Shown: positions 1,618-43,191 of the stretch, one piece after another | How positions within the stretch are numbered: the first letter of the stretch is position 1 | Layout: the number at the start of each line of letters is the position of its first letter | Virus record (IMG/VR): IMGVR_UViG_3300048114_000266 | Coordinates: 1 to 51,354 of that record | Length of the DNA: 51,354 nt | DNA from: a virus | Reading direction: 5' to 3' (one strand) | Made by a program: the position numbers and the translations under genes | The notes under the pieces: generated by a model | Database searches by the model: none | The model's input: only the letters and a program-made list of their open reading frames with translations | Told to the model about the DNA's origin: nothing

Positions 1618-2628
1618 TTAGGCCGGCGCAAGGTACGACGTCGACACTTGGGTATCCGTGACCAAGATTTGCGCCGTGTTCGGCGTAATCGTCACTTCGA
1701 CTTCGTTCGCACCTTCTTCGGGAATGCTATGGGGCGCTTCCGACAGCCCGATACTCCCCGCTTCGTAGCGGAACACTTCGCCCGACGGCTTGGTAAACTG
1801 AATCGACGCCGACCCCGCGTCGTTCGCGTTCAGTAGTTCGGTATATAGCGAATCGTTCGTCACGGTAATCGTCGCTGTAAGTTCGTGTTCGGCGTTCGCA
1901 TACAGCACTTCGAACGGGTCGCGGCCGGACGCTTCCGCGATATAGTGTCGCGGGTCGGCGTTGGTCGTAAGTTCGTGTTCGAAGTTCGTGACGCGGGCGT
2001 AGGAGTTTCCGAAAAGCGAAAGGTTGCTATTGACGTCGTCGAAAATCCACGGGTTCCGGTCGTCAGCGTCGACGCCCGTGGTCGGCGAACTTCCGGGCGT
2101 GACGCCCATAGCAAGCATGTCTAAGTCCGTGGTAAGCCGCCCTTCGTTATCGACCGAAATGGTCACGCCCGGCGGGACGCCGCCCGTGAACGTCCGCACG
2201 AAGTCGTCGGCCCCGCCACGGCCGAAGTATGCCGCTTCGATAGTGACCGACGGCGGCTTCTTGTCGTTCAGTACGTCGATAGTGTGTAGCGTCGTACCCG
2301 TTTCGCTGACTTCCGACCCCGTCGCGTCTAAGTTCGTGTCGGCGGTGACGGTGTCGTTCCCGAAGGCAAGCGCCACGGGGAAGCCGTCGACCGGGATAAC
2401 GGGGAGCGTGCCACCGTCGTAAGTCCGTTGCCCCGGATACTTGTCGGACAATTCGCGGGACGCTTCGCCGCTAATCGACCGTTCTTCAAGCCAATCAATC
2501 GACGGGTCGGGAAGTTCAGTTTCGCCGCTAATCTTTCCGAACGTGCGCGTGACTGACGCCGCCGTACCTTGTTCGGATTCGACCCCGACCAAGATTTGAC
2601 TGTCGTGCCGAACATACGGGTCGGACAT
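1618..2628 (-). CDS. Putative major tail protein
   Basis: ORF track, 336 aa, acidic Thr/Ser-rich; assignment is by position upstream of the G/GT pair only. Confidence 0.5.
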   Translation of the reverse strand: MSDPYVRHDSQILVGVESEQGTAASVTRTFGKISGETELPDPSIDWLEERSISGEASRELSDKYPGQRTYDGGTLPVIPVDGFPVALAFGNDTVTADTNLDATGSEVSETGTTLHTIDVLNDKKPPSVTIEAAYFGRGGADDFVRTFTGGVPPGVTISVDNEGRLTTDLDMLAMGVTPGSSPTTGVDADDRNPWIFDDVNSNLSLFGNSYARVTNFEHELTTNADPRHYIAEASGRDPFEVLYANAEHELTATITVTNDSLYTELLNANDAGSASIQFTKPSGEVFRYEAGSIGLSEAPHSIPEEGANEVEVTITPNTAQILVTDTQVSTSYLAPA

Positions 2629-8780: not shown

Positions 8781-11528
8781 TTACGTCAAGTGATTAACGT
8801 GGGTGTCGTAGCGGTCTATCCAATCGTATAGCGTGTTTGGCGACACCTTGCCCCGTTCTTCGACGTCGTATTCGTCGGCTTCGACTAACCGCCGATTGAA
8901 TTCCCGAAGCGCGCCCCGCTTCGAACCCGATTCTTCTAAGCATTCACGTAGGAGGTTCGGAACGTGATTGCCCAAGACGTCTTCTAATTCCTGCATACGC
9001 CGCGTGGGGTTCGTCGCCTTCGCGACGCGCTTGACGACGTCCGCATACGTTTCGTCGTGGGCCTTCGACGCTTCGACGGGTTCGACGTTCGCGTCGCCGG
9101 CTTCGAATTGGTCCGCGAAGTCGTCGGCCGACGGCACGTCGACGTCCGGCGCGTCGTCGCCGGTCCCCGGAACCCGCACGAACGTATGCCGTTCGTTCGG
9201 GTGAATCGTATGCTTGCGGAACGATAGGTTATCGAAGTATTCGTCGTGAACGTTCCGTTCAGCGTCGATTAGTTCGGGGAGCGTGACCGGCGTCCCGCCG
9301 TGGTCCGGGTTCGTCATGTCTTTCAGGTCTTCGCACGCGTCGGTCGTGCGACTGTCGTCGGGACCGACCCATTTGAACTTCGCGTCGTCAAGCCCACGGT
9401 CGCGATAGCCTTCTTCGCGCGCTTCGTTCAGTACCTTAGCCGATTCGGTGCGCGCTATCGTTTCCAAGTCGTCGGGGTCCGCACGGGGGAGCGCGTCGCT
9501 AAGATTGTCGACGATTGAATCTAACGACCACCCTTGCGGGTTCGTCAGCGCGTCGCTAAGCGTGTCTTGAATCGTAGTAGCCACACGTCCCGGCACCGAC
9601 GCGAAGTCGCTGAACACGGCCCCACGGTCGACGACGTCTTCTAACGCGGACATGACGAAGTCGGGGACGTCTTCGTCTTCGGCCCACGCCCGCTTTTCTA
9701 TGTCGTCAAGCGACTTCGGGGCTATCTGTCGGTCGAACGCCCGCAACAGCGTCGTGTCTAACTTCGCGACTTCGTCTTTCGTCAGTCGGTCGCGGTCGCC
9801 GTCCCCGTCACTCCCGTTTCCCGAATCACCCTTCGTCGTGGGGCCTTGTTCGACGGCGTCGAAGTCTATGTCGTCGAAGTTAACGCCGTCGTATTTGTCG
9901 ATAAGGTCTTGCACCGTTCCGGGGCCGACGCCGAAGACTTCCGCATGTGGGTCGTGGGTTTCCGGCGGGTTCGGCGGGTAAACGACGTCGCCGCCGTCAG
10001 TATTCCGCGCCCGTTTCACGTCGAAGACGACGCCGCCTTCGTCGGCAAGGTCGTCTAAGAAGCGTTCGAAGTCGCCCGATTCGTGGTCTACCGCTTCCCC
10101 GCCGACGTGATAGGTAAGCGGGACGCCACCCTTCGAACGGTCGACGCGAATGTCGGCTTCGTCGGGGTCGTCGACCGACCCGAATAGGCCACCGCCGCCA
10201 CCGCCACCGCCGACGTCGCCTTCTTCGATTGGTCCGTCTTCGACCACTAACTTGCCGTCGCGGAAGGTGACGTCGCGGCCGGCGTTGGCCATTTCCTTCC
10301 CGGCGGTCGCTTGCGCTTCGATAACGTCGGCGCGCGTCTGACGTTCGTCGGCGGTTTGCTCCCGTTCGAATTCGAAGGCAAGGTCGTCGCTAATTTCGGG
10401 CCACACGTATGCCCGGTTAAGGGCTTCTTCTAATTGGCGAAGGGTGACGCGGAAACCGCGCTGTTTGTATGCTCCTTGCTGGGATTCGTCGGTGGCGCGA
10501 TTGACGTTTTCGAAGTCGAAACCCGCATACGACGGGTTAACCTTGAAGACCGACCCCAAGACCGTGACCCAATACTTCGAACGGTCAAGAATTTGTAGTT
10601 CCTGATAATTGTGATTTATCGCTTCGAAGTTTACGGGCGTCTTCGAATAGCCGACGCGGTGGCGTTCCCCTTCGTCCAAGCGCATGGATTCGACGAAGGT
10701 TTCCCAATCTTCGTCGTTCGGTAGTCCGCCGTAATCGTCTAAGGCTTCCGGGGAAAGGACACCGGGCGGGCCGCCTTGCATTAGGTCTAACCGCTCCTTT
10801 TCTGCAAGTTCTTCTAACAATTCGACTTCGTTTTGGGCCTTTTCTAAGGGGCCTTGCCCATAAAATCGGTCGGGGCGCGACGACCATTCGACCCACACAA
10901 TATCGTTAACGTCGAATTCGTCGGTCTTCTTCCCCTTGCTTTGCGACACTTGCACGAAGCCTTCGGTAATCCCGTGCCGGTCGACTTGCTTGAATAGCGA
11001 CGCGCTGTCGACCGGGACAAGTTCGGCGACTTCGTCACTATCTTCGTAGTAGTGCTTGACAAGCGTCGCGTCGCCCAATTCCAACAGTACCCGCGTCGTC
11101 GCTTCAAGCATGTCGCGGAACGACGCTTGCGCGGGCGGCAATTGCCGCATGTGCCTTTCGACCTTCGCTAAGGCTTCGTCGGAAATGTCGGCGTCTTCGT
11201 CGCGGGGTTTAATCGACCAATTCGCGGCGGCGACGTCTTGCGATAGCGTGTCGATATAGGCTTGCACGACGGCGTTCGCGGATATGTCGCGCAAGAAGAC
11301 GGGGTCGTAGGGCTTCGTCTTGGCGTTACCCTGAACGGCGTCGCGAACGTCGTCGTTTACGTTCACGCGCCGGTTAATATCACCTCCCTTTTCCGCTGTT
11401 TCCGGGGAATTGTACCGCTTGCGGCGTCGTGACCGGACCCGCTGACGGCGTTCGCGACCGCTACGGGCGTCGCCGCCGTCCGCGAAGGGTGACGTAATCC
11501 CCTTGACAAATTTACTAAGGCGCGACAT
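8781..11528 (-). CDS. Portal protein fused to a MuF/SPP1-gp7-like head morphogenesis domain
   Basis: ORF track, 915 aa, ATG at 11528. C-terminal half carries IARTESAKV, WVGPDDSRTTDACEDL and HPNERHTF; a Gly8 tract (around 10186-10215) separates the halves. Confidence 0.6.
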   Translation of the reverse strand: MSRLSKFVKGITSPFADGGDARSGRERRQRVRSRRRKRYNSPETAEKGGDINRRVNVNDDVRDAVQGNAKTKPYDPVFLRDISANAVVQAYIDTLSQDVAAANWSIKPRDEDADISDEALAKVERHMRQLPPAQASFRDMLEATTRVLLELGDATLVKHYYEDSDEVAELVPVDSASLFKQVDRHGITEGFVQVSQSKGKKTDEFDVNDIVWVEWSSRPDRFYGQGPLEKAQNEVELLEELAEKERLDLMQGGPPGVLSPEALDDYGGLPNDEDWETFVESMRLDEGERHRVGYSKTPVNFEAINHNYQELQILDRSKYWVTVLGSVFKVNPSYAGFDFENVNRATDESQQGAYKQRGFRVTLRQLEEALNRAYVWPEISDDLAFEFEREQTADERQTRADVIEAQATAGKEMANAGRDVTFRDGKLVVEDGPIEEGDVGGGGGGGGLFGSVDDPDEADIRVDRSKGGVPLTYHVGGEAVDHESGDFERFLDDLADEGGVVFDVKRARNTDGGDVVYPPNPPETHDPHAEVFGVGPGTVQDLIDKYDGVNFDDIDFDAVEQGPTTKGDSGNGSDGDGDRDRLTKDEVAKLDTTLLRAFDRQIAPKSLDDIEKRAWAEDEDVPDFVMSALEDVVDRGAVFSDFASVPGRVATTIQDTLSDALTNPQGWSLDSIVDNLSDALPRADPDDLETIARTESAKVLNEAREEGYRDRGLDDAKFKWVGPDDSRTTDACEDLKDMTNPDHGGTPVTLPELIDAERNVHDEYFDNLSFRKHTIHPNERHTFVRVPGTGDDAPDVDVPSADDFADQFEAGDANVEPVEASKAHDETYADVVKRVAKATNPTRRMQELEDVLGNHVPNLLRECLEESGSKRGALREFNRRLVEADEYDVEERGKVSPNTLYDWIDRYDTHVNHLT

Positions 11529-11565: not shown

Positions 11566-12597
11566 TTAGTCACGCTGTCTTTCCGCCGATTCGACGTCGC
11601 TGTCGTGGGTACAATCCCCGAATACATGATAGTAGTACGTCCCTTTCGTCACGTCGCAACGGTCGATAACAGACGATACAGGTTCGTCACCGCGCCCCTT
11701 GTGTTCGCGCCGTAGTGTCTCACACTTCGACTTCGTCACCCGGTCGACGTCGGGATTCGGGGCGTCGCCACCGTGTAGACACCGCCCGAAAACGTGCCGC
11801 CGAATCGACGATTCGTCGCGTTCCATGTCGCCGGCTAACGCCGCGACCGGAACGCCGCCGCGATAGCGGGCGCGCAAGCGGTCGCATTCGGCCTTTTCTA
11901 TCGGACCCGGCGCGTTGGGTTCGGCCGGCGCGACGTCGACGTCACCGTGCCCACACGCGCCCGTAGCGTGCCGGTGGGCCGTGCCGGTCCCGACAAGACA
12001 CGCACGGGCGACGTCGGCAATCGTCACGCTGTCGTTCCGCCGATAGGTGCGCCGTATTCGGGCACACGTTTCCGCTCCTAATTCGTCGCGGCCGTAGTCG
12101 TTCGGGAAGTCGTGGTCGCACCGACCGAAGACGTGTCGGTTCACCGCGTTAGACGAACGGTAAAATTCGTCGCGAAGGTCGTCGACAGACGCGCCTTCGC
12201 GGAACGTTTCGCGCAAGCCCCGGCATTCCGACCGCGTGATTCGGGGCGACGTCGTCGCGTCGACGGGCGTGTCGTGGGCGCACCCGCCGGTCGCATGTCG
12301 GAAGACGACCGACGGGTGTAGGTCGGGATACGTGTCGACGACGTCTTTGGTCCGGTCGGCGTCGGCCATGTCTTGACGTATAGCCGCGCATTCTTCGACC
12401 GTCAGCCCGTCGACGACCGCGTCGGGGTCGCCGTTAGATACGTACCCGCGAATCGCGTCGGGGTCGCGGTCGTCGCGGTCGACGCGGGCGTATCTGACAA
12501 TCGCTTCGGCTTGGTCGCGACTAAAGTCAGTCCGCGACGACAGCGTGTCGACCCGGTCGACGTCGCCGGGAGTTAGTTCGACGTCGTCTAAATCCAT
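11566..12597 (-). CDS. Protein built from five tandem Cys/His modules
   Basis: ORF track, 343 aa. Five repeats with the pattern C-x2-(I/L)R ... H-x3-G-x-C-x-H, for example HATGGCAHD, HVFGRCDHD, HATGACGHG, HVFGRCLHG, HVFGDCTHD. Confidence 0.55.
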   Translation of the reverse strand: MDLDDVELTPGDVDRVDTLSSRTDFSRDQAEAIVRYARVDRDDRDPDAIRGYVSNGDPDAVVDGLTVEECAAIRQDMADADRTKDVVDTYPDLHPSVVFRHATGGCAHDTPVDATTSPRITRSECRGLRETFREGASVDDLRDEFYRSSNAVNRHVFGRCDHDFPNDYGRDELGAETCARIRRTYRRNDSVTIADVARACLVGTGTAHRHATGACGHGDVDVAPAEPNAPGPIEKAECDRLRARYRGGVPVAALAGDMERDESSIRRHVFGRCLHGGDAPNPDVDRVTKSKCETLRREHKGRGDEPVSSVIDRCDVTKGTYYYHVFGDCTHDSDVESAERQRD

Positions 12598-22765: not shown

Positions 22766-23002
22766 CTACCCGTCGGCTTCGTCGGCGGCTTCGACAAGGG
22801 TGCGCGCTTCGGCAATCTTGTCGTCGACGCGCCCTTTGTGACTTCGAACGGTCCCGACAGCGACGCCAAGCGCGTTCGCGACGTGGGTTTCGGTCGCCCC
22901 AATTTCATACATGGCCACGAAGACGAACGCTTGCCGTTGCGATAGCGTCGTGTTTGATTCTATTACGTCGACGCGGTCGGTCAAGTCGTCGACGTCAGTC
23001 AT
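22766..23002 (-). CDS. Small HTH regulator (sigma-70 region-4-like helix-turn-helix)
   Basis: Internal ATG at 23002 of ORF track 22766..23272, overlapping the upstream stop as ATGA; contains LSQRQAFVFVAMYEIGATETHVANALGVAVGTVRSHKGR. Confidence 0.5.
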   Translation of the reverse strand: MTDVDDLTDRVDVIESNTTLSQRQAFVFVAMYEIGATETHVANALGVAVGTVRSHKGRVDDKIAEARTLVEAADEADG

Positions 23003-27684: not shown

Positions 27685-27743
27685 GGTGGGTCGCACCTAC
27701 TACCCACTAACGGGGCCACGGTAATAAAGGTGTCGGCGTTACA
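27685..27743 (-). promoter_or_regulatory. Promoter-leader cassette
   Basis: Gene-strand acgccgacacc-TTTATTA-ccgtggccccgttagtgggtagtaggtgcgacccacc-ATG. Confidence 0.6.
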
Positions 27744-28212: not shown

Positions 28213-28431
28213 CTACTGAACGCTTGGCGAATGGTCGTCGTCGTCGGTCGTCACGCGGTCGACGGCGTCTTCGAAGCGTTCGGCGGCGACGTCGTTCACG
28301 TCGTCGACGCTGTCGTCGGGTGCGCCCACGACGTCGACTTCGACTTCCGTGCCGTCGAAGTCCGACGACGACGTCTTCGCGCTGACGCTGACGCGCGCTT
28401 GTCCTTCCGGGGTTTCGCTGTCGTGACTCAT
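28213..28431 (-). CDS. Small hypothetical acidic protein
   Basis: Internal ATG at 28431 of Arg-rich ORF track 28213..28779; ATGA overlap with the upstream stop. Confidence 0.4.
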   Translation of the reverse strand: MSHDSETPEGQARVSVSAKTSSSDFDGTEVEVDVVGAPDDSVDDVNDVAAERFEDAVDRVTTDDDDHSPSVQ

Positions 28432-28814
28432 TCGTCGGCCCCGTGATTGTTCGACGGCACCCGTAGGGTGAACTTCGACGGCGCGTATATCTCCCCGTGT
28501 TCGTGTAGGTCGCGAATGACGTCGAAGGCCGTGCCTAACGTGAATACGTCGGCGGTGTCTTCGATTACGTGGGCGACGGGTGCGCCGTCTTCGGCCTTGT
28601 CTTCGTTCGCGCGAATCGCTTCGACGACGTGTTCGGCGACGCTGGGGTTCGCTTCCGCCGGGCGAATCGACCGCGTGCCGTCTTCGCGTTCGACGACGAC
28701 GCGGTCGGCCCCGCCAAGTAGTGCCCCAGCGACGGCGTGGGTAGCGTCGTAGGCGGCGGCGTCGCTTCCGACGTGCCACGGTTCGCCGTCGACTTCGACT
28801 TCGTATCCCGTCAT
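28428..28814 (-). CDS. Hypothetical protein
   Basis: Internal ATG at 28814 of ORF track 28428..29078; begins MTGYEVEVDGEPWHV. Confidence 0.5.
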   Translation of the reverse strand: MTGYEVEVDGEPWHVGSDAAAYDATHAVAGALLGGADRVVVEREDGTRSIRPAEANPSVAEHVVEAIRANEDKAEDGAPVAHVIEDTADVFTLGTAFDVIRDLHEHGEIYAPSKFTLRVPSNNHGADE

Positions 28815-29521
28815 TCGCCTTCGCCCCCGTCGTCGACCGGCATGTATCCGTGTTCCATGTTCGGCGTCTTCGGTGGCACGCGTGACACCTTCGATAGTTC
28901 GCCGTCGCGTGGTCGAAGGACGTCGATATACCCGTCGGCGTCGTCGTCGCGAAGGTCGTAGACGATAGCGTCGTCGGGGTCGCCGGTATCCCCAGCGTAG
29001 TAGTCGACGCGGTCGCCGACGTCGACGTCGGGTTCGTTCGGCGGTTCGACGCCTTCGATAGCGTCGTCGTCGACCCATACGACGTCGCGGTCGTTCAGGA
29101 ATTCGCCGATACTGTCGTCGGTCGATTCGCCCTTCGTCTTGTGGTCGCCGTCGATATACCGACGAAGTAGGTAATTGTCCGCGTCGCTTCGGACGTATAG
29201 CCCGGTGAACGACGACGGGCCGTGTAGGGATTCGCGGACGGATAGGGCGACCAAGTCGTGCGGGTCGCTTGGGCCGGTCGTGCCGTAGAATTGCGTGGGG
29301 AAGTGAACGTGATAGTTCCCGCCGACGCCCTTAATGTAGCCGGTAATGTGGTCGGGTTCCCAATCCTCCTTGTCGACGCTGTCGTCGCCAAGGAACGATA
29401 GCGGGACGTCGGGGACGTGCGCCTTCGCGACGCACGACACGGTCGTTTCGCCGACGTCGTAGGCGTCGCGACCCTTGTCGGTGGCGACCCACGCCGCTTC
29501 GGTGTCGTCTTCGTCAGTCAT
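28811..29521 (-). CDS. Hypothetical protein
   Basis: Internal ATG at 29521 of ORF track 28811..29641; N-terminal DTEAAWVATDKGRDAYD resembles a segment of the 37841..39358 protein. Confidence 0.55.
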   Translation of the reverse strand: MTDEDDTEAAWVATDKGRDAYDVGETTVSCVAKAHVPDVPLSFLGDDSVDKEDWEPDHITGYIKGVGGNYHVHFPTQFYGTTGPSDPHDLVALSVRESLHGPSSFTGLYVRSDADNYLLRRYIDGDHKTKGESTDDSIGEFLNDRDVVWVDDDAIEGVEPPNEPDVDVGDRVDYYAGDTGDPDDAIVYDLRDDDADGYIDVLRPRDGELSKVSRVPPKTPNMEHGYMPVDDGGEGE

Positions 29522-29730
29522 GCGTCTTCGCCCCCGATTAGTTCGACGTCGGCGTCGATTGCGTCGAACAAGACGTCGATGGCTTCGTGCGCCGTGTCGC
29601 CGGCCGCGCGGACGTCGTGGCCTTCGGCTTCGGCACGCCACGCTGTCGTTTCGTCGTCGCCGTCCCGCACGGGGACTTCTTCGACAGTTAGTTCGAACTT
29701 CGGTAGATTGCCGTGTTTTGGGTCGGTCAT
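29518..29730 (-). CDS. Small hypothetical protein
   Basis: ORF track, 70 aa, ATG start. Confidence 0.5.
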   Translation of the reverse strand: MTDPKHGNLPKFELTVEEVPVRDGDDETTAWRAEAEGHDVRAAGDTAHEAIDVLFDAIDADVELIGGEDA

Positions 29731-29732
29731 GG

Positions 29733-30398
29733 TTAGGCGTCGTCTTCGTCTGTTGGTTGGTCGTCGGCCGGTTCGACGTCGACTTGCGTAATGTCGACGG
29801 CGGGGATTGTCCCGACGACGTCGAAGCCGTGGTCGGCCATAGTGTCGACGACGTCGTCTTCGTCTATGTCGCCGCTATCGACCAAGAAGCGGCCGCGCCC
29901 ACGTTCGGCGTTGTATTGGGCGGACTTGACCCGGCCGTCGTCGACAGCGTTCACCGCGCGGCGAAGCGTGTCTTCGTCGACGCCGCCGTCGGTCATGTAG
30001 GTGTCTCCCGGTTCGTCAGTCGGGAAGTCCGTGTCGCTGTCGTCGATTGCGTCATGGTTCGATAACGCTTCGCGAAGTAGGTCGCGGTCGCCGCTCCCGT
30101 CTTCGACGGCTAACGGCGTCGCCGTGCGTGGCGTGTCCGCAATCAGATACACGCCGTTGGGGAACGGGCCGGGCGTGTCGTCGACCGCGTCGACCTTGTT
30201 CCAATCGACGGAAATGGGGCACCCGTCGGTTAGGTCGGGGTGTTTGCCTTCGGCGTGGGCTTGCATAGCCCGAACCGCCGCGTCGCGGGCGTGGCGTGCG
30301 ACGTTCCGCGCTTCGTCTTTGTCGGGGCCGACGACTTCGATAGTCACCGATACGTCCGAACCTTCGGTCGAAATGCCGCCGAATGTCTTCTTCGTCAT
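29733..30398 (-). CDS. Hypothetical acidic protein
   Basis: ORF track, 221 aa. Confidence 0.55.
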   Translation of the reverse strand: MTKKTFGGISTEGSDVSVTIEVVGPDKDEARNVARHARDAAVRAMQAHAEGKHPDLTDGCPISVDWNKVDAVDDTPGPFPNGVYLIADTPRTATPLAVEDGSGDRDLLREALSNHDAIDDSDTDFPTDEPGDTYMTDGGVDEDTLRRAVNAVDDGRVKSAQYNAERGRGRFLVDSGDIDEDDVVDTMADHGFDVVGTIPAVDITQVDVEPADDQPTDEDDA

Positions 30399-30733
30399 GT
30401 GTCTTCAGTAGCGTCGAATTCGTTCGTTTCGTCACGGGTGACGTCCAAGTCGCTGACGTCGCCGAACCGTTCGACCATGACCACGGCGGATTTGCGGACG
30501 TGCCGAACTTCGTCGTAGATTCGAATGGCTTCGGCGTCGCCCGCGTCTTGGTCGCCCAAGCCGTGCCGTGGCGGGGACACCGACGCGCGGTAGCCCGCAA
30601 GGTCGTCTTTGTCGTCAGTCGTCACGACGACGTCGACATGGGCGAATGCGCGCCCTTCGTCAGTAACGTCGGGGTGGTCGAAGAATAGCCGGAACGCCCG
30701 GCCCGTATCGAAGATTTGGTCGAACGTGTTCAT
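30395..30733 (-). CDS. Hypothetical protein
   Basis: ORF track, 112 aa; ATGA overlap with the upstream gene. Confidence 0.5.
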   Translation of the reverse strand: MNTFDQIFDTGRAFRLFFDHPDVTDEGRAFAHVDVVVTTDDKDDLAGYRASVSPPRHGLGDQDAGDAEAIRIYDEVRHVRKSAVVMVERFGDVSDLDVTRDETNEFDATEDT

Positions 30734-31101
30734 GGGTGGGGGTCGTAGGCGTCTTGTGCGAATTCAGTCACGTCGTCGGGGTGAACGTCGATACCGACGA
30801 ACGTCGTCAGATACGACGCAAGGGCTTCGGTCGCCTTGTCGGTCGCGACGTAGGTATTCGTCCGCTTGTCGCGTTCGCCCTTGTAGATAAATCCATTCCG
30901 AACCAAGTCGTCAAGGTTCGGGTAAAGGCGGCCGTGATTGACTTCTTCGCCACGGATTACCTCTAAGTCGCGCTTAATCGCTAAGCCGTGCGGTCGGTCG
31001 TCGGGGGACGCACCGGGAGAGCCACCAAGCCGCATGATTGCGATAGCGGCCTGTTGTTGAAAGGCGGTAAGGTGCGCCCAATCGCTCACTTTCGGGTTCA
31101 T
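30730..31101 (-). CDS. Winged-helix transcription regulator (PadR/MarR-like)
   Basis: ORF track, 123 aa; GRLYPNLDDLVRNGFIYKGERDKRTNTYVATDKATEAL reads as recognition helix plus wing; a palindromic site lies just upstream. Confidence 0.55.
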   Translation of the reverse strand: MNPKVSDWAHLTAFQQQAAIAIMRLGGSPGASPDDRPHGLAIKRDLEVIRGEEVNHGRLYPNLDDLVRNGFIYKGERDKRTNTYVATDKATEALASYLTTFVGIDVHPDDVTEFAQDAYDPHP

Positions 31102-31124
31102 ACTGCATTACACCCTTCGGCGTA

Positions 31125-31148
31125 ACACCGACAAAAGCGTGTCGGTGT
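31125..31148. promoter_or_regulatory. Perfect 9-bp inverted repeat with 6-bp spacer (candidate operator)
   Basis: ACACCGACA-aaagcg-TGTCGGTGT, 24-47 nt upstream of the winged-helix gene start (31101). Confidence 0.55.
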
Positions 31149-31310
31149 CGTTATAGGTGACGCCTAACTTCGACGTATCCCGATTGCGTGACCCGTCGAA
31201 GTACCGTGACCGTCGCATTCGGGGCGCTGTCGGGGCGCGTGTGGCGTTCGTTCGTCGGTAGGTCGTCTTGGTCGCGATAGACCGTCGGCGGGAACACGGT
31301 CATGCTACGG

Positions 31311-31469
31311 CTACGTGACGGCGCGCACGCTGTCGTCGTTCCGAACCAAGTCGCGAACACAAGGAGCGCACACGTCGACGGGTCGCGGGTCGCGGTCGTC
31401 GTCGACGTAATAGATTCTATGCGGGGCCGTTTCGACGCTGTCGCGGTCGCATTCGTCGCACGTTCCCAT
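31311..31469 (-). CDS. Mini zinc-ribbon protein
   Basis: Internal ATG at 31469 of Arg-rich ORF track 31311..31946; MGTCDECDRD ... CAPC. Confidence 0.35.
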   Translation of the reverse strand: MGTCDECDRDSVETAPHRIYYVDDDRDPRPVDVCAPCVRDLVRNDDSVRAVT

Positions 31470-31510
31470 ACGACGACGTCGGTGGGCGCTGTTGTAGTCG
31501 TTCGGGGTCG

Positions 31511-31930
31511 CTAATCGACGTCCCACCACACGTCTAAGACCGTCGCGACGTCGTCGTCTTCGGGCGCGTCGTCGGGCCAATCTTCTTCGGTGACGACGTA
31601 GCCTTCGATTATGTCGTCTAACGGGTCGCCCGCGTCGAAGCGGTCTTGCCAAATCCGTTCGGTGTCGTCGCCCGATAGCCGGGGCGCGACGAACCGAAGT
31701 TCTTGACAGTCGACGGCGTCGACGACGGCCGTCAGTAGGTCGGACATGCGCGTGTCGCCTTCGGCTTCGACGTAGGCGATTCGAACGCGGCCGTCGCCCG
31801 GTTCGATAATCGCTTCGGCGTCCCCCAGCGTCGCGCGGTAGGCGTCGCCGTCGCGGTCCCGAATCGGGAGAAATTGGTACTTGCCGACCCACGGGTCGAT
31901 ACGGTCGAATTGTAAGGTTTCGTCTGTCAT
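31511..31930 (-). CDS. Hypothetical acidic protein
   Basis: Internal ATG at 31930 of ORF track 31511..32137; begins MTDETLQFDR. Confidence 0.5.
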   Translation of the reverse strand: MTDETLQFDRIDPWVGKYQFLPIRDRDGDAYRATLGDAEAIIEPGDGRVRIAYVEAEGDTRMSDLLTAVVDAVDCQELRFVAPRLSGDDTERIWQDRFDAGDPLDDIIEGYVVTEEDWPDDAPEDDDVATVLDVWWDVD

Positions 31931-31953
31931 AAACTGAATGTCGCAATACGAAC

Positions 31954-32196
31954 TTAGCGACGGCGTCGGCGGCGGCCGCCGGTCAAGTCGTCGGTCTTGT
32001 CGGGCTGATTCGCCGGTTCGGTGTCGGCCGGGCCGACGTCGTCTTCGGCGATTACGTCGCCCGTGACCGGGCACGAATACGTAATCGTCGCGTCGTCTTC
32101 GTCGTGTTCTTCGACCGGGCATTCGTCGCTTCCGCACGTCCCGCTGATTGATTGGATAACGCCGCGCGCATTCCGTTCGACTGTATGGCTTGGCAT
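31954..32196 (-). CDS. Small Cys-containing protein
   Basis: ORF track, 80 aa. Confidence 0.45.
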   Translation of the reverse strand: MPSHTVERNARGVIQSISGTCGSDECPVEEHDEDDATITYSCPVTGDVIAEDDVGPADTEPANQPDKTDDLTGGRRRRRR

Positions 32197-32198
32197 GG

Positions 32199-33821
32199 CT
32201 ATCTGTTGGTTTCGAACCGTGACGCCGGCCGTTGCGACCCGGTGACGTGGTCGATGACCTTCGTCGACACGGTCGGCATTTTGCCGTCGCGTTCGTACCG
32301 CTCCCGTGACGCCACGACGTCGACCTTGTCGGTCGGCGCGGGGCCGACGTCGACCGCTACGACGTGCGTCCCGCCGTGGCTACGGTAGTGGTCGACCCCG
32401 ACGACTTCGCCTTCGAAGACCGTGCCGTTATCGTCGGCCCATACGGTCGCGCTGTCGCCGACTTCGGCCGCGTAGACGTTCGCCGCTATGCCTTCCGAAT
32501 CCATCGTCGTGGCGTCGAAGACCGTCTTCGCGCCGTCGGCGGTCGGGTGGGCCATGCGCGGATTGTTCGGCGCGCGTAGCGTCAGCGTGTCGGTCGCGTC
32601 GGGTTCCGTCGTGATTGGTTCGTACCGGGAGCAATCCGGCGCGTGGTCGTATGGGGCCGGCGCGTACCGGCCGCAAAACGCACACTTGTCGACGTCGCCG
32701 CCGGCCGCGTCGGGGCCGCCGTCGAAGCGGTCGTCGCGATAGTCGACGCCGCCGTCGGTCGCTGTCGGGCGGTCGATACGGTCGTGTGCGAAGACGTCGT
32801 CGGGGTCGACGGTCGTGCCGTCGATATGGTAGCGCGCCCATTCGGAAGACCGTGCGCCGTCGTCGTCTTCGTGGTCGTCGAACCACCCTTGCGTAACAAG
32901 AATGACGTGTTCGTCGGTGTCTTCGAAGTAGTGAATGAATACTTCGGCGGGGACGGTGTAATAGGGCTGAACCGCCGCGTTCCCTCCCGAATAGGCGCGG
33001 AAGTCGATACGGAACGGTTCGCCCGGTTCGGGCGATTCGCCGCCGTCGGTCGCGGCTTCGGGGCTATCAGTTTCACTTTCACCGCGCGGGGTGTCGTGGT
33101 CTTCGTCGCTGTCGACGAACGCTTCGAAGACGTCGGCCGCGCTGTCGCGAAGGTCGTCGCGCACCATGTGGTCGCGGTCGTCTTCGTCGGCGTGGTAGAC
33201 GTCGGCGCGAAGGACACGGCCAAGCCGGGACATTTGACCCTTCGGCCCGCGCGTCGATATGACCGGCGACCCGTGGGCGGGCACGCCGAAGCGGTGAATG
33301 CCGACGGGTTCGCCGTCCGACGTTTCGTCGCCCGTGTCGAACGTGACTTCGAATAACTCCCCGTTCGCGTAGTTGTATTTGACCGACGTGACGGTGCCCC
33401 GAATCGTCTTCCGATTGCCCTTCGCGCGGGTCGACATGTGTTCGACTTCGATAGTGTCGCCGCGTGCGACGTCGCCGACGTCGAACGCAAGTTCGCCGTT
33501 ATCCGCGAAGTCGCCTTCGACGTCCGGTTCGACGTCGCGAACGACGCGCATGTCGACGCCCGTCGTGAACCGGCCGCCCGAATCCGTCGACTTGACGAAG
33601 CCGCCGTCGGTAATCAGGAACGAATACGACCGGGCGTTCGCGCGGTCTAACGACGCTTCGACGACGGTGCCGTCGTAGTCGCCGTAATCGACGCCGACCT
33701 TGTCGACCGTTAGATTCGACTTCGGGAGGAAAGACGCGCCGGACACGCTGACTTCGTCGCCGACTTCGATTTGTTCGACAGACGTCACGGCTTCGGTCGT
33801 GGTTTCGGTGGGTTCGGTCAT
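32199..33821 (-). CDS. Large hypothetical protein
   Basis: ORF track, 540 aa; begins MTEPTETTTE on the cassette. Confidence 0.6.
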   Translation of the reverse strand: MTEPTETTTEAVTSVEQIEVGDEVSVSGASFLPKSNLTVDKVGVDYGDYDGTVVEASLDRANARSYSFLITDGGFVKSTDSGGRFTTGVDMRVVRDVEPDVEGDFADNGELAFDVGDVARGDTIEVEHMSTRAKGNRKTIRGTVTSVKYNYANGELFEVTFDTGDETSDGEPVGIHRFGVPAHGSPVISTRGPKGQMSRLGRVLRADVYHADEDDRDHMVRDDLRDSAADVFEAFVDSDEDHDTPRGESETDSPEAATDGGESPEPGEPFRIDFRAYSGGNAAVQPYYTVPAEVFIHYFEDTDEHVILVTQGWFDDHEDDDGARSSEWARYHIDGTTVDPDDVFAHDRIDRPTATDGGVDYRDDRFDGGPDAAGGDVDKCAFCGRYAPAPYDHAPDCSRYEPITTEPDATDTLTLRAPNNPRMAHPTADGAKTVFDATTMDSEGIAANVYAAEVGDSATVWADDNGTVFEGEVVGVDHYRSHGGTHVVAVDVGPAPTDKVDVVASRERYERDGKMPTVSTKVIDHVTGSQRPASRFETNR

Positions 33822-35438: not shown

Positions 35439-35521
35439 TGCGACGGGCCGGATTCGAACCGGCGAACCCCTACGGGACACGGTCTTAAGCCGTGCGCGTT
35501 TGGCCACTTTGCTACCGTCGC
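35439..35521 (-). tRNA. tRNA-Leu, anticodon UAA
   Basis: Hand fold of GCGACGGTAGCAAAGTGGCCAAACGCGCACGGCTTAAGACCGTGTCCCGTAGGGGTTCGCCGGTTCGAATCCGGCCCGTCGCA: 7-bp acceptor stem, anticodon stem CACGG/CCGTG with loop CTTAAGA, long variable arm, T-arm GCCGG-TTCGAAT-CCGGC. The D-stem is weak. Confidence 0.7.
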
Positions 35522-35599: not shown

Positions 35600-35716
35600 T
35601 AGTCGCGGGTGGATTCGAACCACCGTCGTAGGCTTACTTTCGGGCACGCCCCCTTCGACCTTCGTTCAGCGTGCCCGTCCAAAGGCCCACATGATTGGCC
35701 ACTACACCACGCGACT
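35600..35716 (-). tRNA. tRNA-Gln, anticodon UUG, with a 44-nt intron
   Basis: Exon 1 AGTCGCGTGGTGTAGTGGCCAATCATGTGGGCCTTTGG and exon 2 AGCCTACGACGGTGGTTCGAATCCACCCGCGACTA give a perfect acceptor stem, anticodon stem TGGGC/GCCTA and T-arm GGTGG-TTCGAAT-CCACC. The insert sits at the canonical 37/38 position. Confidence 0.7.
35635..35678 (-). other. tRNA intron
   Basis: Contains a 9-bp inverted repeat CGGGCACGC ... GCGTGCCCG, compatible with a splicing helix. Confidence 0.6.
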
Positions 35717-35765
35717 GCAAGCGTTGGTTTCGAATCTATCCGGTTAAGGCATGTCGGTCGCCGGC

Positions 35766-39441: not shown

Positions 39442-39458
39442 GGTATATTAGCGACATA
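39442..39458 (+). promoter_or_regulatory. BRE/TATA-like promoter of the TFB-like gene
   Basis: cgacatac-TTTTATG about 35 nt upstream of ATG 39489. Confidence 0.45.
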
Positions 39459-39488
39459 CTTTTATGCCGGTCGGCGGTACGTGTCGGT

Positions 39489-40538
39489 ATGGAAACGGAA
39501 CCAGATACCGACGCGACCGACCGGATTCGTTCGATTGCCGAACGGGTCGGGTTCGACGACAGTATCGGCGACTTGGCTACCCAAGTGTTCACGAACGCCG
39601 TCGAAGAAGGCGTCGTCACCGCCGTCGTCGACCGCGACGAAAGCGGTCGCTTCGAAGGTGAAACGCGGAACTACCCGGCGGCCGCATACCCGGCGGCCGT
39701 GTATGCCGCCGCGCGGATTCGTGACATTCCGACCAAGCCGTCCGAAGTCGCTGACGCGGCCGACGTCGACGCTGACGTCGACGCTGTCGGTGACTATTAC
39801 AAGGACATGCTTGGGGCGCTACCCTACACCGTCGAACCGGAAGACCCGGTCGATTGGGTGCGCCGGCTTTGCGACGACTTGGACGTGTCCCCCGGCTTCG
39901 AAACCGACGCCGTCGACTTGTGCGGCGACGCTGTCGGTGCGAACCTGCATAACGGCAAGGCCGTGTCCGGGTTCGCCGCCGCCGTCGTCTACGCGACGTC
40001 GGAATATCGCGACGCTGACGTCGGGCAAGACCGTATCGCCGAAGTCGCCGACGTGTCGCCCGTGACGATTCGGAACCAGTACCGCGACGTCTTGGAATTG
40101 TGGGAACGGGCGGCCGAACCGGGCGACCCCGACGTGATTCGGGCCGCCGTTAACGACGTGTGTGACCGTATCGACGGGCTTCCCTCCCGCGTGCGGGCCG
40201 ACGTCGCCGACCTTGCCGCCGACGCTATCGACGCCGACGCCGACTTCGTCAGTAACACCGACCCCGACGGCGTGGCGGCCGGTATCGTCTACGTGGCGGC
40301 GAAAGACGCCCGCGTCGACGTCAGTCAAACCGAAGTCGCTGACGTCGCGGGCGTGTCGAAGTCGACCGTCGTGAACCGGGTAAACGACGTCCGCGATTGG
40401 CGGCGTCGGAAGGACTTCGAAGCGAAGGAATACAATACGCTAAAGCAAATCGCGGCCGACCACGGCGTCGACGTCGGGCAACAGCCCGAACGCCCCTATC
40501 TTATCGACCGCTTAGTCGAAGCGGGTGTCGACGCATGA
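39489..40538 (+). CDS. TFB/TFIIB-core-like transcription factor with no N-terminal zinc ribbon
   Basis: First ATG of ORF track 39432..40538. SGFAAAVVYATSEYRDADVGQDRIAEVADVSPVTIRNQYRDVLEL closely follows the pattern I recall for the second cyclin repeat and HTH of archaeal TFB; two further similar modules are present. The N-terminus has no Cys pairs. Confidence 0.6.
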   Translation: METEPDTDATDRIRSIAERVGFDDSIGDLATQVFTNAVEEGVVTAVVDRDESGRFEGETRNYPAAAYPAAVYAAARIRDIPTKPSEVADAADVDADVDAVGDYYKDMLGALPYTVEPEDPVDWVRRLCDDLDVSPGFETDAVDLCGDAVGANLHNGKAVSGFAAAVVYATSEYRDADVGQDRIAEVADVSPVTIRNQYRDVLELWERAAEPGDPDVIRAAVNDVCDRIDGLPSRVRADVADLAADAIDADADFVSNTDPDGVAAGIVYVAAKDARVDVSQTEVADVAGVSKSTVVNRVNDVRDWRRRKDFEAKEYNTLKQIAADHGVDVGQQPERPYLIDRLVEAGVDA

Positions 40539-42351: not shown

Positions 42352-42431
42352 CACGCTGACGACGTAGGAGTATGACGGGGTCGTAGCCACCGGCTAACGA
42401 CCCCGTTAGTGTAGGTCTAAGCGTTTGTGTT

Positions 42432-42485
42432 GTTACTACTACACTACACTACACTACTACTAACTAACACTATACTACTACACGA
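42432..42485. repeat. AT-rich low-complexity ACTAC pentanucleotide tract
   Basis: ttactactacactacactacactactactaactaacactatactactacac, immediately upstream of the promoter of the 42535 gene. Confidence 0.7.
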
Positions 42486-42534: not shown

Positions 42535-43191
42535 ATGTCGAAAGACGGTTTGGTGCGACTTCCCCGAATCAGCGAATCGCTCCGTGACGAATTCCGCGAC
42601 GACGTCGAAGACCGCTTCGGAACGGTACGCGGTCACTACCGTTCGGAAGTCGAAAAAGCCCTTCGTGAATACCTGAACGGGTCGCACGGCGGGGATACTG
42701 ACGACCGCCTTCGCCGGTTAGAAAACGCGGTCGAACGTATCGACGAACGAACCGCCGCCCTACACGCTGACGAATCGGGAAAAAACAAAAAGGATTCAGA
42801 CGTTTCCCCCACGACCCAAAATCGGATTGAATCAATCCGTGACCGTGTCGAACGCGAATCGGGAACCGGCCCCGTTCACGAAGCGGTCGTGCGGCAAGCA
42901 ATCGAAGACGTCGCCGGCCATAGTGACCCGACCATTCGGCGGTACATGCAAATGCTTACCGATAGGGAAATACTGTATCCCCACCCGAACCGCGACACGA
43001 AGTTCGTTTACGGGGAAGAAGAATATGCGTGCATGATTCAAAGCATGGCCGAATCGGGAGCAATCACCGAAAGCGAATATTGGGACGTCGTCACCGGCAT
43101 GGGCGGCGAAAACGACTTCCGCAATATCTTGGAACGCGCCGGCTACGACGACGGCGGTGACGACAAGCCCGCCGGTCGAACCTTTCAGTAG
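42535..43191 (+). CDS. Putative DNA-binding regulator (N-terminal RHH-like, C-terminal winged-helix-like)
   Basis: Internal ATG at 42535 of ORF track 42427..43191. N-terminus LVRLPRISESLRDEFRDDVEDRFG fits a strand-helix-helix pattern; C-terminus HEAVVRQAIEDVAGHSDPTIRRYMQMLTDREILYP fits a winged helix. Confidence 0.5.
   Translation: MSKDGLVRLPRISESLRDEFRDDVEDRFGTVRGHYRSEVEKALREYLNGSHGGDTDDRLRRLENAVERIDERTAALHADESGKNKKDSDVSPTTQNRIESIRDRVERESGTGPVHEAVVRQAIEDVAGHSDPTIRRYMQMLTDREILYPHPNRDTKFVYGEEEYACMIQSMAESGAITESEYWDVVTGMGGENDFRNILERAGYDDGGDDKPAGRTFQ

Follow-up and report, generated by a model that had tools for sequence, protein, structure and literature searches.

A conserved dyad around the TATA-like element of a RosR-like operon in a haloarchaeal tailed virus is probably an operator for a dimeric repressor

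RosR of Halobacterium salinarum (VNG0258H; PDB 6EZ1, 6QFD, 6QUA, 6QH0) is a cellular regulator with a PadR-type winged helix-turn-helix (wHTH) fold. It works as a dimer that prefers an AT-rich centre and acts beside TFB sites, and its motif, from SELEX and crystals, is TGT-N10-ACA with an AT-rich centre. The residues that contact DNA are G33, L34, N49, H50, R52, Y54, N56, K68, K73, R74 and N76 (PMC7145548). RosR binds and represses its own gene (PMC4287449), and its specificity has been called degenerate (bioRxiv 10.1101/2024.11.20.624553). Autoregulation is usual among PadR proteins, whose canonical operator is defined as ATGT-N8-10-ACAT (PMC3506622), as well as among the regulators of archaeal viruses (PMC5569661). 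In bacterial PadR/LmrR systems, a small PadR subfamily-2-like protein lies beside an inverted repeat in its own promoter. Interrupted palindromes are also described in haloarchaeal viruses, for the phiH1 repressor and for PInt/Orf4 of the Betapleolipovirus SNJ2. The SNJ2 palindrome abuts the TATA of an operon whose first gene encodes the RosR-like Orf3, and repression acts through this palindrome. Its reader is another wHTH protein, Orf4, and the operon encodes an integrase. In phiH (L315, MK002701 38582-39263), the early lytic transcripts T1-T3 have a PadR-like ORF as their first gene, and a CxxC protein and PCNA come next, an arrangement much like that of the virus studied here; phiH-like viruses carry a conserved palindrome, GGACCTC-GTGA-GAGGTCC, in the leader. 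Two further systems resemble the promoters described below. The SIRV early-gene consensus is a conserved element directly 5' of TATA and common to many viral promoters, and the inverted repeats that overlap the BRE in SMV2 have been proposed as repressor sites.

The DNA analysed here, 51,354 nucleotides in all (the window), is a complete metagenomic contig and the genome of a haloarchaeal tailed virus. It has ~61% G+C, encodes acidic proteins, and carries genes for a portal, terminase, protease, tail tube and PCNA along with two tRNAs. With the terminases of Halorubrum virus Humcor1, HSTV-1, BJ1 and HRTV-28, its own shares only 41-44% identity. GenBank virus and phage records gave no match by megablast with window positions 29000-33000, nor did GenBank phage records by tblastn with the 616-aa protein of the window. 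Minus-strand genes fill 1 to 39.4 kb and 43.7 to 51 kb; those in the block between, at 39.5-43.7 kb, are on the plus strand. The features at the regulator locus are as follows.

28213..30733, minus strand: six tightly packed or overlapping ORFs downstream of the regulator, of unassigned function (from the gene map and gaps)
30730..31101, minus strand: RosR/PadR-like winged-helix regulator gene, 123 aa, with its ATG at 31101 (Pfam PF03551)
31105..31108, minus strand: putative transcription start with a very short leader, predicted from the box+TATA-to-ATG spacing
31125..31148, minus strand: 24-bp dyad, core promoter of the RosR/PadR-like operon, gene strand ACACCGACA-CGCTTT-TGTCGGTGT
31125..31133, minus strand: downstream arm of the dyad, TGTCGGTGT, an inverted copy of the box region, at about -26 to -18, between TATA and the putative start
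31132..31138, minus strand: TATA-like element GCTTTTG at the dyad centre, T-run at 31133-31136
31139..31148, minus strand: upstream arm of the dyad, with the box CCGACAC at 31139-31145 in BRE position, at about -41 to -32 from the putative start
31151..31303, minus strand: conserved 50-aa ORF upstream of the dyad, TAA stop at 31151-31153

The first-pass annotation had described a perfect palindrome, ACACCGACA-n6-TGTCGGTGT, at 31125-31148, 24-47 nt upstream of a winged-helix gene and overlapping its promoter. This is exact, and the gene belongs to the PadR family. On the plus strand the site reads ACACCGACA (31125-31133), AAAGCG (31134-31139) and TGTCGGTGT (31140-31148). It lies in a 49-bp intergenic gap, one edge of which is the TAA stop of the 50-aa ORF. 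Read on the gene strand, the order is TAA, gACACCGACAC, GCTTTTG, TCGGTGT, 23 nt and then the ATG. Because this order is box, T-run and inverted box, the spacer of the dyad is a T-rich TATA-like element. The box+TATA 13-mer ends 31 nt from the ATG here and 29-31 nt in orthologues, compared with 25 nt in the shortest-spaced promoters of the window. No bacterial sigma-70 promoter is present. The site is the core promoter of the RosR-like operon, with a conserved dyad around the TATA-like run. The six ORFs at 28213..30733 are probably co-transcribed from it; their synteny is kept in relatives, and none has a Pfam assignment. A second small inverted repeat, TTACGCC-GAAG-GGTGTAA, lies between the dyad and the ATG (31107-31124, minus strand), and its GAAGGGTGTAATGCAG is kept only in the closest relatives, L001-L004.

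A perfect palindrome of this size is not by itself remarkable in this genome. The window is rich in GTCGAC and 9/6/9 perfect palindromes are not unusual in it; inverted repeats with arms of at least 9 bp and a spacer of 3-10 nt occur at 9 loci, against 10.6 expected under a second-order Markov model. The case for a function must therefore rest on position and conservation. As to position, the dyad alone among such repeats of the window falls inside a promoter gap, and the 24-mer is unique in the window even with up to 3 mismatches allowed. A nine-of-nine mirror of the box region at the mirrored position would be expected ~1e-4 times given ~23 promoters, an estimate that assumes uniform base odds.

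As to conservation, we gathered relatives through a protein database and contig look-ups, a single-protein search of viral contigs having found no close PadR relatives. Orthologues of the regulator form a distinct metagenomic clade, P0001-P0021 (E 1e-72 to 1e-29), in syntenic contigs with viral gene context, apart from cellular homologues (E ~1e-17); synteny did not support orthology with cellular rosR. The pattern A-CCGACAC-GCTTTT-G(T/C)CGG-T is kept in nine distinct orthologous promoters, 29-31 nt from the ATG, across lineages with 50-94% protein identity. CTTTTG is invariant among the orthologous promoters, and the right arm takes the form TG(T/C)CGGT in the nine. Pairwise identity among seven divergent lineages is 0.76 in the left arm, 0.87 in the spacer and 0.83 in the right arm, and 0.45 in both flanks. 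Judged from these alignments, the dyad is under selection. The dependable symmetry is 7 bp, ACCGACA-n6-TGTCGGT, and the two outer positions are variable. In one relative (L131) the dyad is perfect over 11 bp and its outer bases differ, CAATACCGACA-n6-TGTCGGTATTG; in another (L005) it spans 8 bp and has a G/C swap, GACCGACA-n6-TGTCGGTC.

The inverted arm is almost confined to the promoter of the regulator gene. Of 108 box promoters taken from 17 related loci, 11 have an inverted G[TC]CGG at offset +6 (~1.1 expected per offset), and nine of these 11 are promoters of PadR orthologues. An exact-pattern scan of viral contigs for the 9-n6-9 palindrome gave 0 matches. The shorter, degenerate pattern CGACAYNCTTTTGYCGG, scanned against viral and genome collections, gave chance matches only, all of them in bacteria and viruses that are unrelated and have no protein in common with the window. 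Some ~120 loci of the wider PadR family were screened; they contain no CGACA-type dyads and have different palindromes of their own.

Covariation between the arms is not significant, being equalled in 116 of 500 shuffles; the arms are thus held by sequence conservation rather than by pairing. This bears on the proposal that the palindrome works as a hairpin, in RNA or in DNA, and serves for instance in processing, stability or termination when transcripts read through from the genes upstream. The RNA fold is stable (-24.3 kcal/mol, z = -3.1) and a second small hairpin follows it. However, the stem lacks a U-tract behind it, no terminator-like match or Rfam family was found at the site, and the variants in L129 and L134 versus L133 give A.C mismatches on one strand or the other, so that neither strand keeps pairing. 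The base identity of both arms is conserved beyond what mere pairing would need. We rejected the RNA readings for want of an Rfam family, a terminator-like site and significant covariation, and regard a hairpin function as extremely unlikely.

The regulator scores 40.5 bits against the Pfam PadR profile PF03551 (cutoff 27, E=2.8e-10). When the profile of its clade is compared with solved structures, RosR of Hbt. salinarum is the sole match (6EZ1, E=4e-25). Its AF2 model (pLDDT 90) has helices at 13-24, 39-50 and 56-68, a wing at 72-86 and C-terminal helices at 88-102 and 108-118; the eight best Foldseek matches are all RosR chains, with 41-45% identity. As modelled, the protein fits the small PadR subfamily-2-like form, with 123 aa against ~110 aa, a wHTH and a short C-terminal helical part that is predicted to dimerise. 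It is 42-45% identical to RosR, and all 11 RosR contact residues are identical in it (G39, L40, N55, H56, R58, Y60, N62, K74, K79, R80 and N82). The viral regulators differ from RosR by an extra loop, GGSPGASPDDRP, and by another C-terminal tail.

The cellular RosR-type genes (N-terminus MSE...) have promoters of their own kind. Many loci (L007, L011-L013, L022, L025, L033, L040, L061, L065, L068, L071, L073, L076, L080, L084 and others) share the conserved promoter TTGAGAAgtGTTAAATAG-n4-GATGACATT-n9-ATGTCAGAG. In some, a palindrome, AACCTT-GAGA-AAGGTT or TTAACA-AG-TGTTAA, overlaps the TATA region, and in many a full-length tfb gene lies ~2-2.5 kb downstream.

A dyad that overlaps the core promoter of a regulator and is conserved with its gene has the layout of an autoregulated repressor; the first-pass annotation had described the overlap with the promoter as an autoregulation layout. 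With contact residues equal to those of RosR, autoregulation is plausible, but the dyad matches RosR sites in just the 13-bp spacing of guanines. No TGT-N10-ACA lies near the regulator gene (the sole intergenic copy in the window is at 42428), and no ATGT-N8-10-ACAT, the operator of bacterial PadR proteins, occurs between 31102 and 31310; the bacterial systems differ further in having -35/-10 promoters in place of an archaeal BRE/TATA promoter. The dyad does hold four RosR-type triplets, ACAccgACA-cgcttt-TGTcggTGT, but in everted order, ACA-N6-TGT, opposite in polarity to the RosR motif. In the RosR register it reads CGA-N10-TCG instead of TGT and ACA: with a RosR-like dimer modelled onto its centre, the recognition helices would face CGA (positions 5-7) and TCG (18-20). 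This register gives each arm a guanine, 31143 (minus strand) and 31130 (plus strand), the two lying symmetrically around a T-rich centre at a distance of 13 bp. The same guanine spacing and T-rich centre are found in the RosR S1 site, GCGAGGTGTAAATTGTCTGACATGTTCT, where the guanine is the position contacted by His50, and the corresponding G6 and C19 of the dyad are invariant in all nine promoters. By sequence, then, the dyad can meet the RosR geometry and its single base-specific contact, though not the flanking thymines that SELEX requires. The first-pass interpretation is supported in this part, the overlap of the palindrome with the core promoter of the regulator itself.

Two relatives keep the regulator without a good dyad, which argues against autoregulation: in L088 it is missing and in L306 it is degenerate. 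In the L306 orthologue (~2100-2486, minus strand), HN replaces NH at the position of RosR His50, and in its promoter the inner triplet of each arm, which bears the guanine, is gone (ATA, TCC). This single case would fit the His-guanine reading of the dyad. The lack of significant arm covariation also counts against autoregulation.

The mismatch in polarity would also fit a different repressor, viral or host, that reads the dyad and times the RosR-like operon while the RosR-like protein acts elsewhere. SNJ2 sets the precedent, in that PInt drives orf3 and the palindrome abutting its TATA mediates repression by Orf4; SNJ2 Orf3 is 49% identical to the window regulator over the wHTH. An operon headed by a RosR-like gene can thus be repressed by another protein, which weighs against autoregulation here. 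The two palindromes differ, however, in that the SNJ2 one lies wholly upstream of TATA and the viral dyad straddles it, and no Orf4-like protein was found in the window. Co-inheritance of the dyad with the regulator gene in nine lineages speaks for a reader next door, although it is compatible with both models. Other HTH genes are present in the window, and other DNA-binding candidates, the TFB-like protein described below and a 78-aa LuxR-type HTH, weaken the case for the RosR-like protein. The latter is encoded by an uncalled ORF (22766-23002, minus strand) that shares 4 nt with the end of the gene before it; it resembles LuxR/GerE or sigma-70 region-4 HTH domains (Pfam GerE 23.4 bits, cutoff 23.5) and is another candidate regulator. 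On balance we consider a different repressor unlikely, the least so of the alternatives.

The upstream arm of the dyad has a wider distribution. As a motif scan of the kind called for in the first-pass annotation confirms, its half-site CCGACAC is common upstream of TATA boxes: the window has 37 copies against 19.6 expected, a count reached in 0 of 100 shuffles, and 13 copies are intergenic (intergenic DNA is 12% of the window), most of them directly 5' of a T-run. The composite of box and T-rich run, [CG]CG[AG][CT]A-NN-T-rich, has 24 matches against 4.9 expected. Of these, 21 are intergenic and lie 25-63 nt 5' of start codons, and a G/C-C-T-T-T-T/A run follows the box in ~21 intergenic promoters. 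Two spacings to the start codon are usual, 25-31 nt (leaderless or near-leaderless) and 36-39 nt. In an information profile of 23 window promoters, conservation is limited to CGACA and TTT(A/T), and the bases 5' of the box are variable. What the dyad arm shares with other promoters is therefore CGACA plus the T-run; the outer ACAC of the arm is outside the general box. All promoters other than that of the dyad have single half-sites only, as in this example.

27724..27736, minus strand: single-box cassette promoter, CCGACACCTTTAT followed by a conserved leader, without an inverted arm

The cassette is nearly identical at several unrelated genes and consists of box, TATA and a ~40-nt conserved leader that ends in ...GTTAGTGGGTAGTAGGTGCGAACC just before the ATG (the 36-39 nt class). 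Its boxes start at 2692, 14211, 16058, 19645, 22746, 25273, 27724, 33860, 37682 and 39398, and GGTG in the leader could be a Shine-Dalgarno sequence. In a second, leaderless class the box+TATA 13-mer ends 25 nt before the ATG. A box promoter, CCGACATGCCTTAAC (~35745-35757), also precedes a second tRNA gene at 35600-35716 (minus strand), which has an intron of ~45 nt, scores 46 bits with Rfam, was missed by ARAGORN, and adjoins tRNA-Leu(TAA) at 35439-35521. Upstream of the box promoter of the gene at 42535-43191, a 225-bp gap holds short tandem repeats (ACTAC/ACTACACT units) at 42390-42480 (plus strand).

The box has the place and form of a BRE. The haloarchaeal BRE consensus is CGAAA (PMC10123103), and the box core CGACA equals it in 4 of 5 positions and sits in the same place, abutting the TATA-like run at a fixed distance. 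It is an element of 5-7 bp directly 5' of TATA on the transcribed side. The core, CGACA (CGGCA in a sister clade), nevertheless differs from the CGAAA or purine-rich elements of described archaeal BRE-TFB systems. The exact combination CGAAA+TATA is absent from the 13 related viral loci examined save for one copy in L313, and the box motif, frequent in every related contig, is essentially absent from ~100 other haloarchaeal loci, from viruses, proviruses and hosts, whose G+C is similar. The box motif is thus specific to the virus lineage.

It had been suggested that this BRE-like box is, or doubles as, the binding site of the winged-helix regulator, which would then control much of the genome. 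The core CGACA does resemble the reported RosR half-site TGACA, and Halobacterium RosR binds ~190 loci and co-localises with TFBs. Six box promoters (2685, 16065, 22394, 22753, 25280 and 27731) also have TGT-N7-ACA, for example TGTAACGCCGACA, overlapping the box; its polarity is that of RosR, PadR and MosR sites and its spacer is shorter. TGT-N7-ACA occurs at 12 sites in the window against 5.2 expected, a count inflated because several copies are paralogous, the six promoter cases being in part copies of the cassette. Single half-sites at the other promoters argue against genome-wide control, and so do three relatives, L304, L312 and L313, that have no PadR homologue within 10 kb of the TFB-like gene and nevertheless keep their box promoters. 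In relatives with the first form of the TFB-like helix described below, the PadR gene lies 7-9.5 kb from the TFB-like gene. Persistence of the box without a syntenic PadR gene indicates that the box is independent of that gene, and a global role for the RosR-like protein is very unlikely.

A rival candidate reader of the box, on sequence grounds, is a TFB-like protein encoded by the virus itself, a feature that sets this lineage apart from described archaeal BRE-TFB systems.

39451..39463, plus strand: GCGACATACTTTT, box+TATA promoter, 25 nt from the ATG of the TFB-like gene
39489..40538, plus strand: virus-encoded TFB-like protein, two cyclin repeats (Pfam PF00382)

Residues 13-203 of this protein align with positions 131-304 of the 312-position TFB profile, and its AF2 model matches P. 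woesei TFBc (1AIS/1D3U) with a Foldseek TM of 0.72-0.73. It adds a third cyclin/HTH-like repeat and a conserved tail. The ~130 N-terminal residues of host TFBs (zinc ribbon, B-reader and B-linker) are missing in all aligned viral homologues: 26 viral TFB-like clusters, all of 325-370 aa, include none with the zinc-ribbon domain PF08271. All come from metagenomic contigs, ~46-51 kb where complete (relatives including L088/L310 and L303-L313). Host TFBs are much more distant, and GenBank virus records contain no homologue. A split TFB, with a separate zinc-ribbon gene beside the TFB-like gene, was considered and is unsupported in the window. A partial copy of the dyad arm, TGTCGGTAT, at the start codon of the TFB-like gene (39481) is not kept in L305 or L306 and was taken as chance.

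The variant of the box tracks the BRE-contacting helix of this protein. Where the helix reads ..T(I/V)RNQYR.. (the window, L305, L306, L307, L088 and L311), boxes are CGACA in 47 cases and CGGCA in 5; where it reads ..TIIRR(Y/H)YR.. (L304, L312 and L313), they are CGACA in 6 and CGGCA in 13 (Fisher p=2.4e-6). The correlation comes from a single clade split and is thus a hint rather than proof. The shared box behaves as a TFB-type recognition element, to judge from its sequence and setting, that would be read by the host TFB or the viral paralogue, and it is better explained as a lineage-specific BRE than as the site of the RosR-like regulator. The identification of the box with the regulator's binding site is accordingly not borne out. 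In L304, of the CGGCA clade, a palindrome, GTTCCCG-TT-CGGGAAC, directly follows the TATA of one promoter (~12300-12353, minus strand), and the TFB-like gene has one half of it at its own promoter (9961-9990, plus strand). This suggests another, putative operator system.

If the box is a BRE, the dyad could be a symmetric BRE-TATA-BRE promoter, at which a TFB-type factor, host or viral, docks on either side of TBP; the promoter would be ambiguous in orientation, and either weakened or firing antisense RNA into the upstream genes. The archaeal BRE sets promoter polarity. The box behaves as a BRE, and in phiH the antisense transcript Tant begins 1 nt before the PadR-like ORF. However, just 6 bp separate the mirrored arms, so that the reverse TATA register is shifted and reads AAAGCGTG, and no conserved ORF or other feature lies downstream on the plus strand. 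In L131 the symmetry also goes on for 2 bp past the arm of nine bases; these positions are well away from the CGACA core, and a BRE has no need of them. We find this explanation distinctly unlikely.

Taken together, our results indicate that the dyad is probably an operator for a dimeric repressor, counting both possible readers. What carries this reading is the anatomy of the site, its conservation, its association with one gene and the family of the protein, all of which are directly supported. Autoregulation through the adjacent RosR-like protein is the single most likely version, and from the sequences we favour it only tentatively. The upstream arm would be the BRE-like box of the lineage and the spacer the TATA-like T-run, and the downstream arm would be an inverted copy of the box between TATA and the putative start, kept almost only at the regulator gene. 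The whole would serve a dimeric winged-helix repressor as its operator, and the most probable such repressor is the RosR-like protein, whose gene follows immediately. With its centre over the TATA element, a single dimer would occupy TATA, the BRE position and the stretch from -26 to -18. Once bound, it would exclude TBP and TFB and so exert negative autoregulation on the operon. At the other ~20 promoters, the box would primarily be a TFB-type recognition element and not a target of the RosR-like regulator. A broader picture is that the lineage may run its own promoter recognition, with a BRE of CGACA/CGGCA read by the zinc-ribbon-less, three-repeat TFB paralogue and the specificity of the RosR-like protein matched to the box; through the doubled box at its own operon, the regulator could compete directly with a TFB-type factor, and at single boxes in other places it would do so weakly. 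This, too, we hold to be distinctly improbable.

Should the RosR-like protein prove to use the dyad as its operator, the case would provide a compact and testable archaeal repressor sitting exactly where TBP and TFB assemble, in a virus group without a cultured member. A RosR-type protein would then also be shown to use a site that departs from TGT-N10-ACA, a point that matters for the question of how loosely these proteins read DNA. The dyad itself is an ordinary element that joins a known class; more unusual are the promoter system around it and the viral TFB in its truncated form. Archaeal viruses are generally thought to depend on the TBP and TFB of the host (PMC5569661). The larger prize is the ~20 promoters with a non-canonical BRE-like box, whose variant tracks a viral TFB paralogue without the polymerase-recruiting domain.
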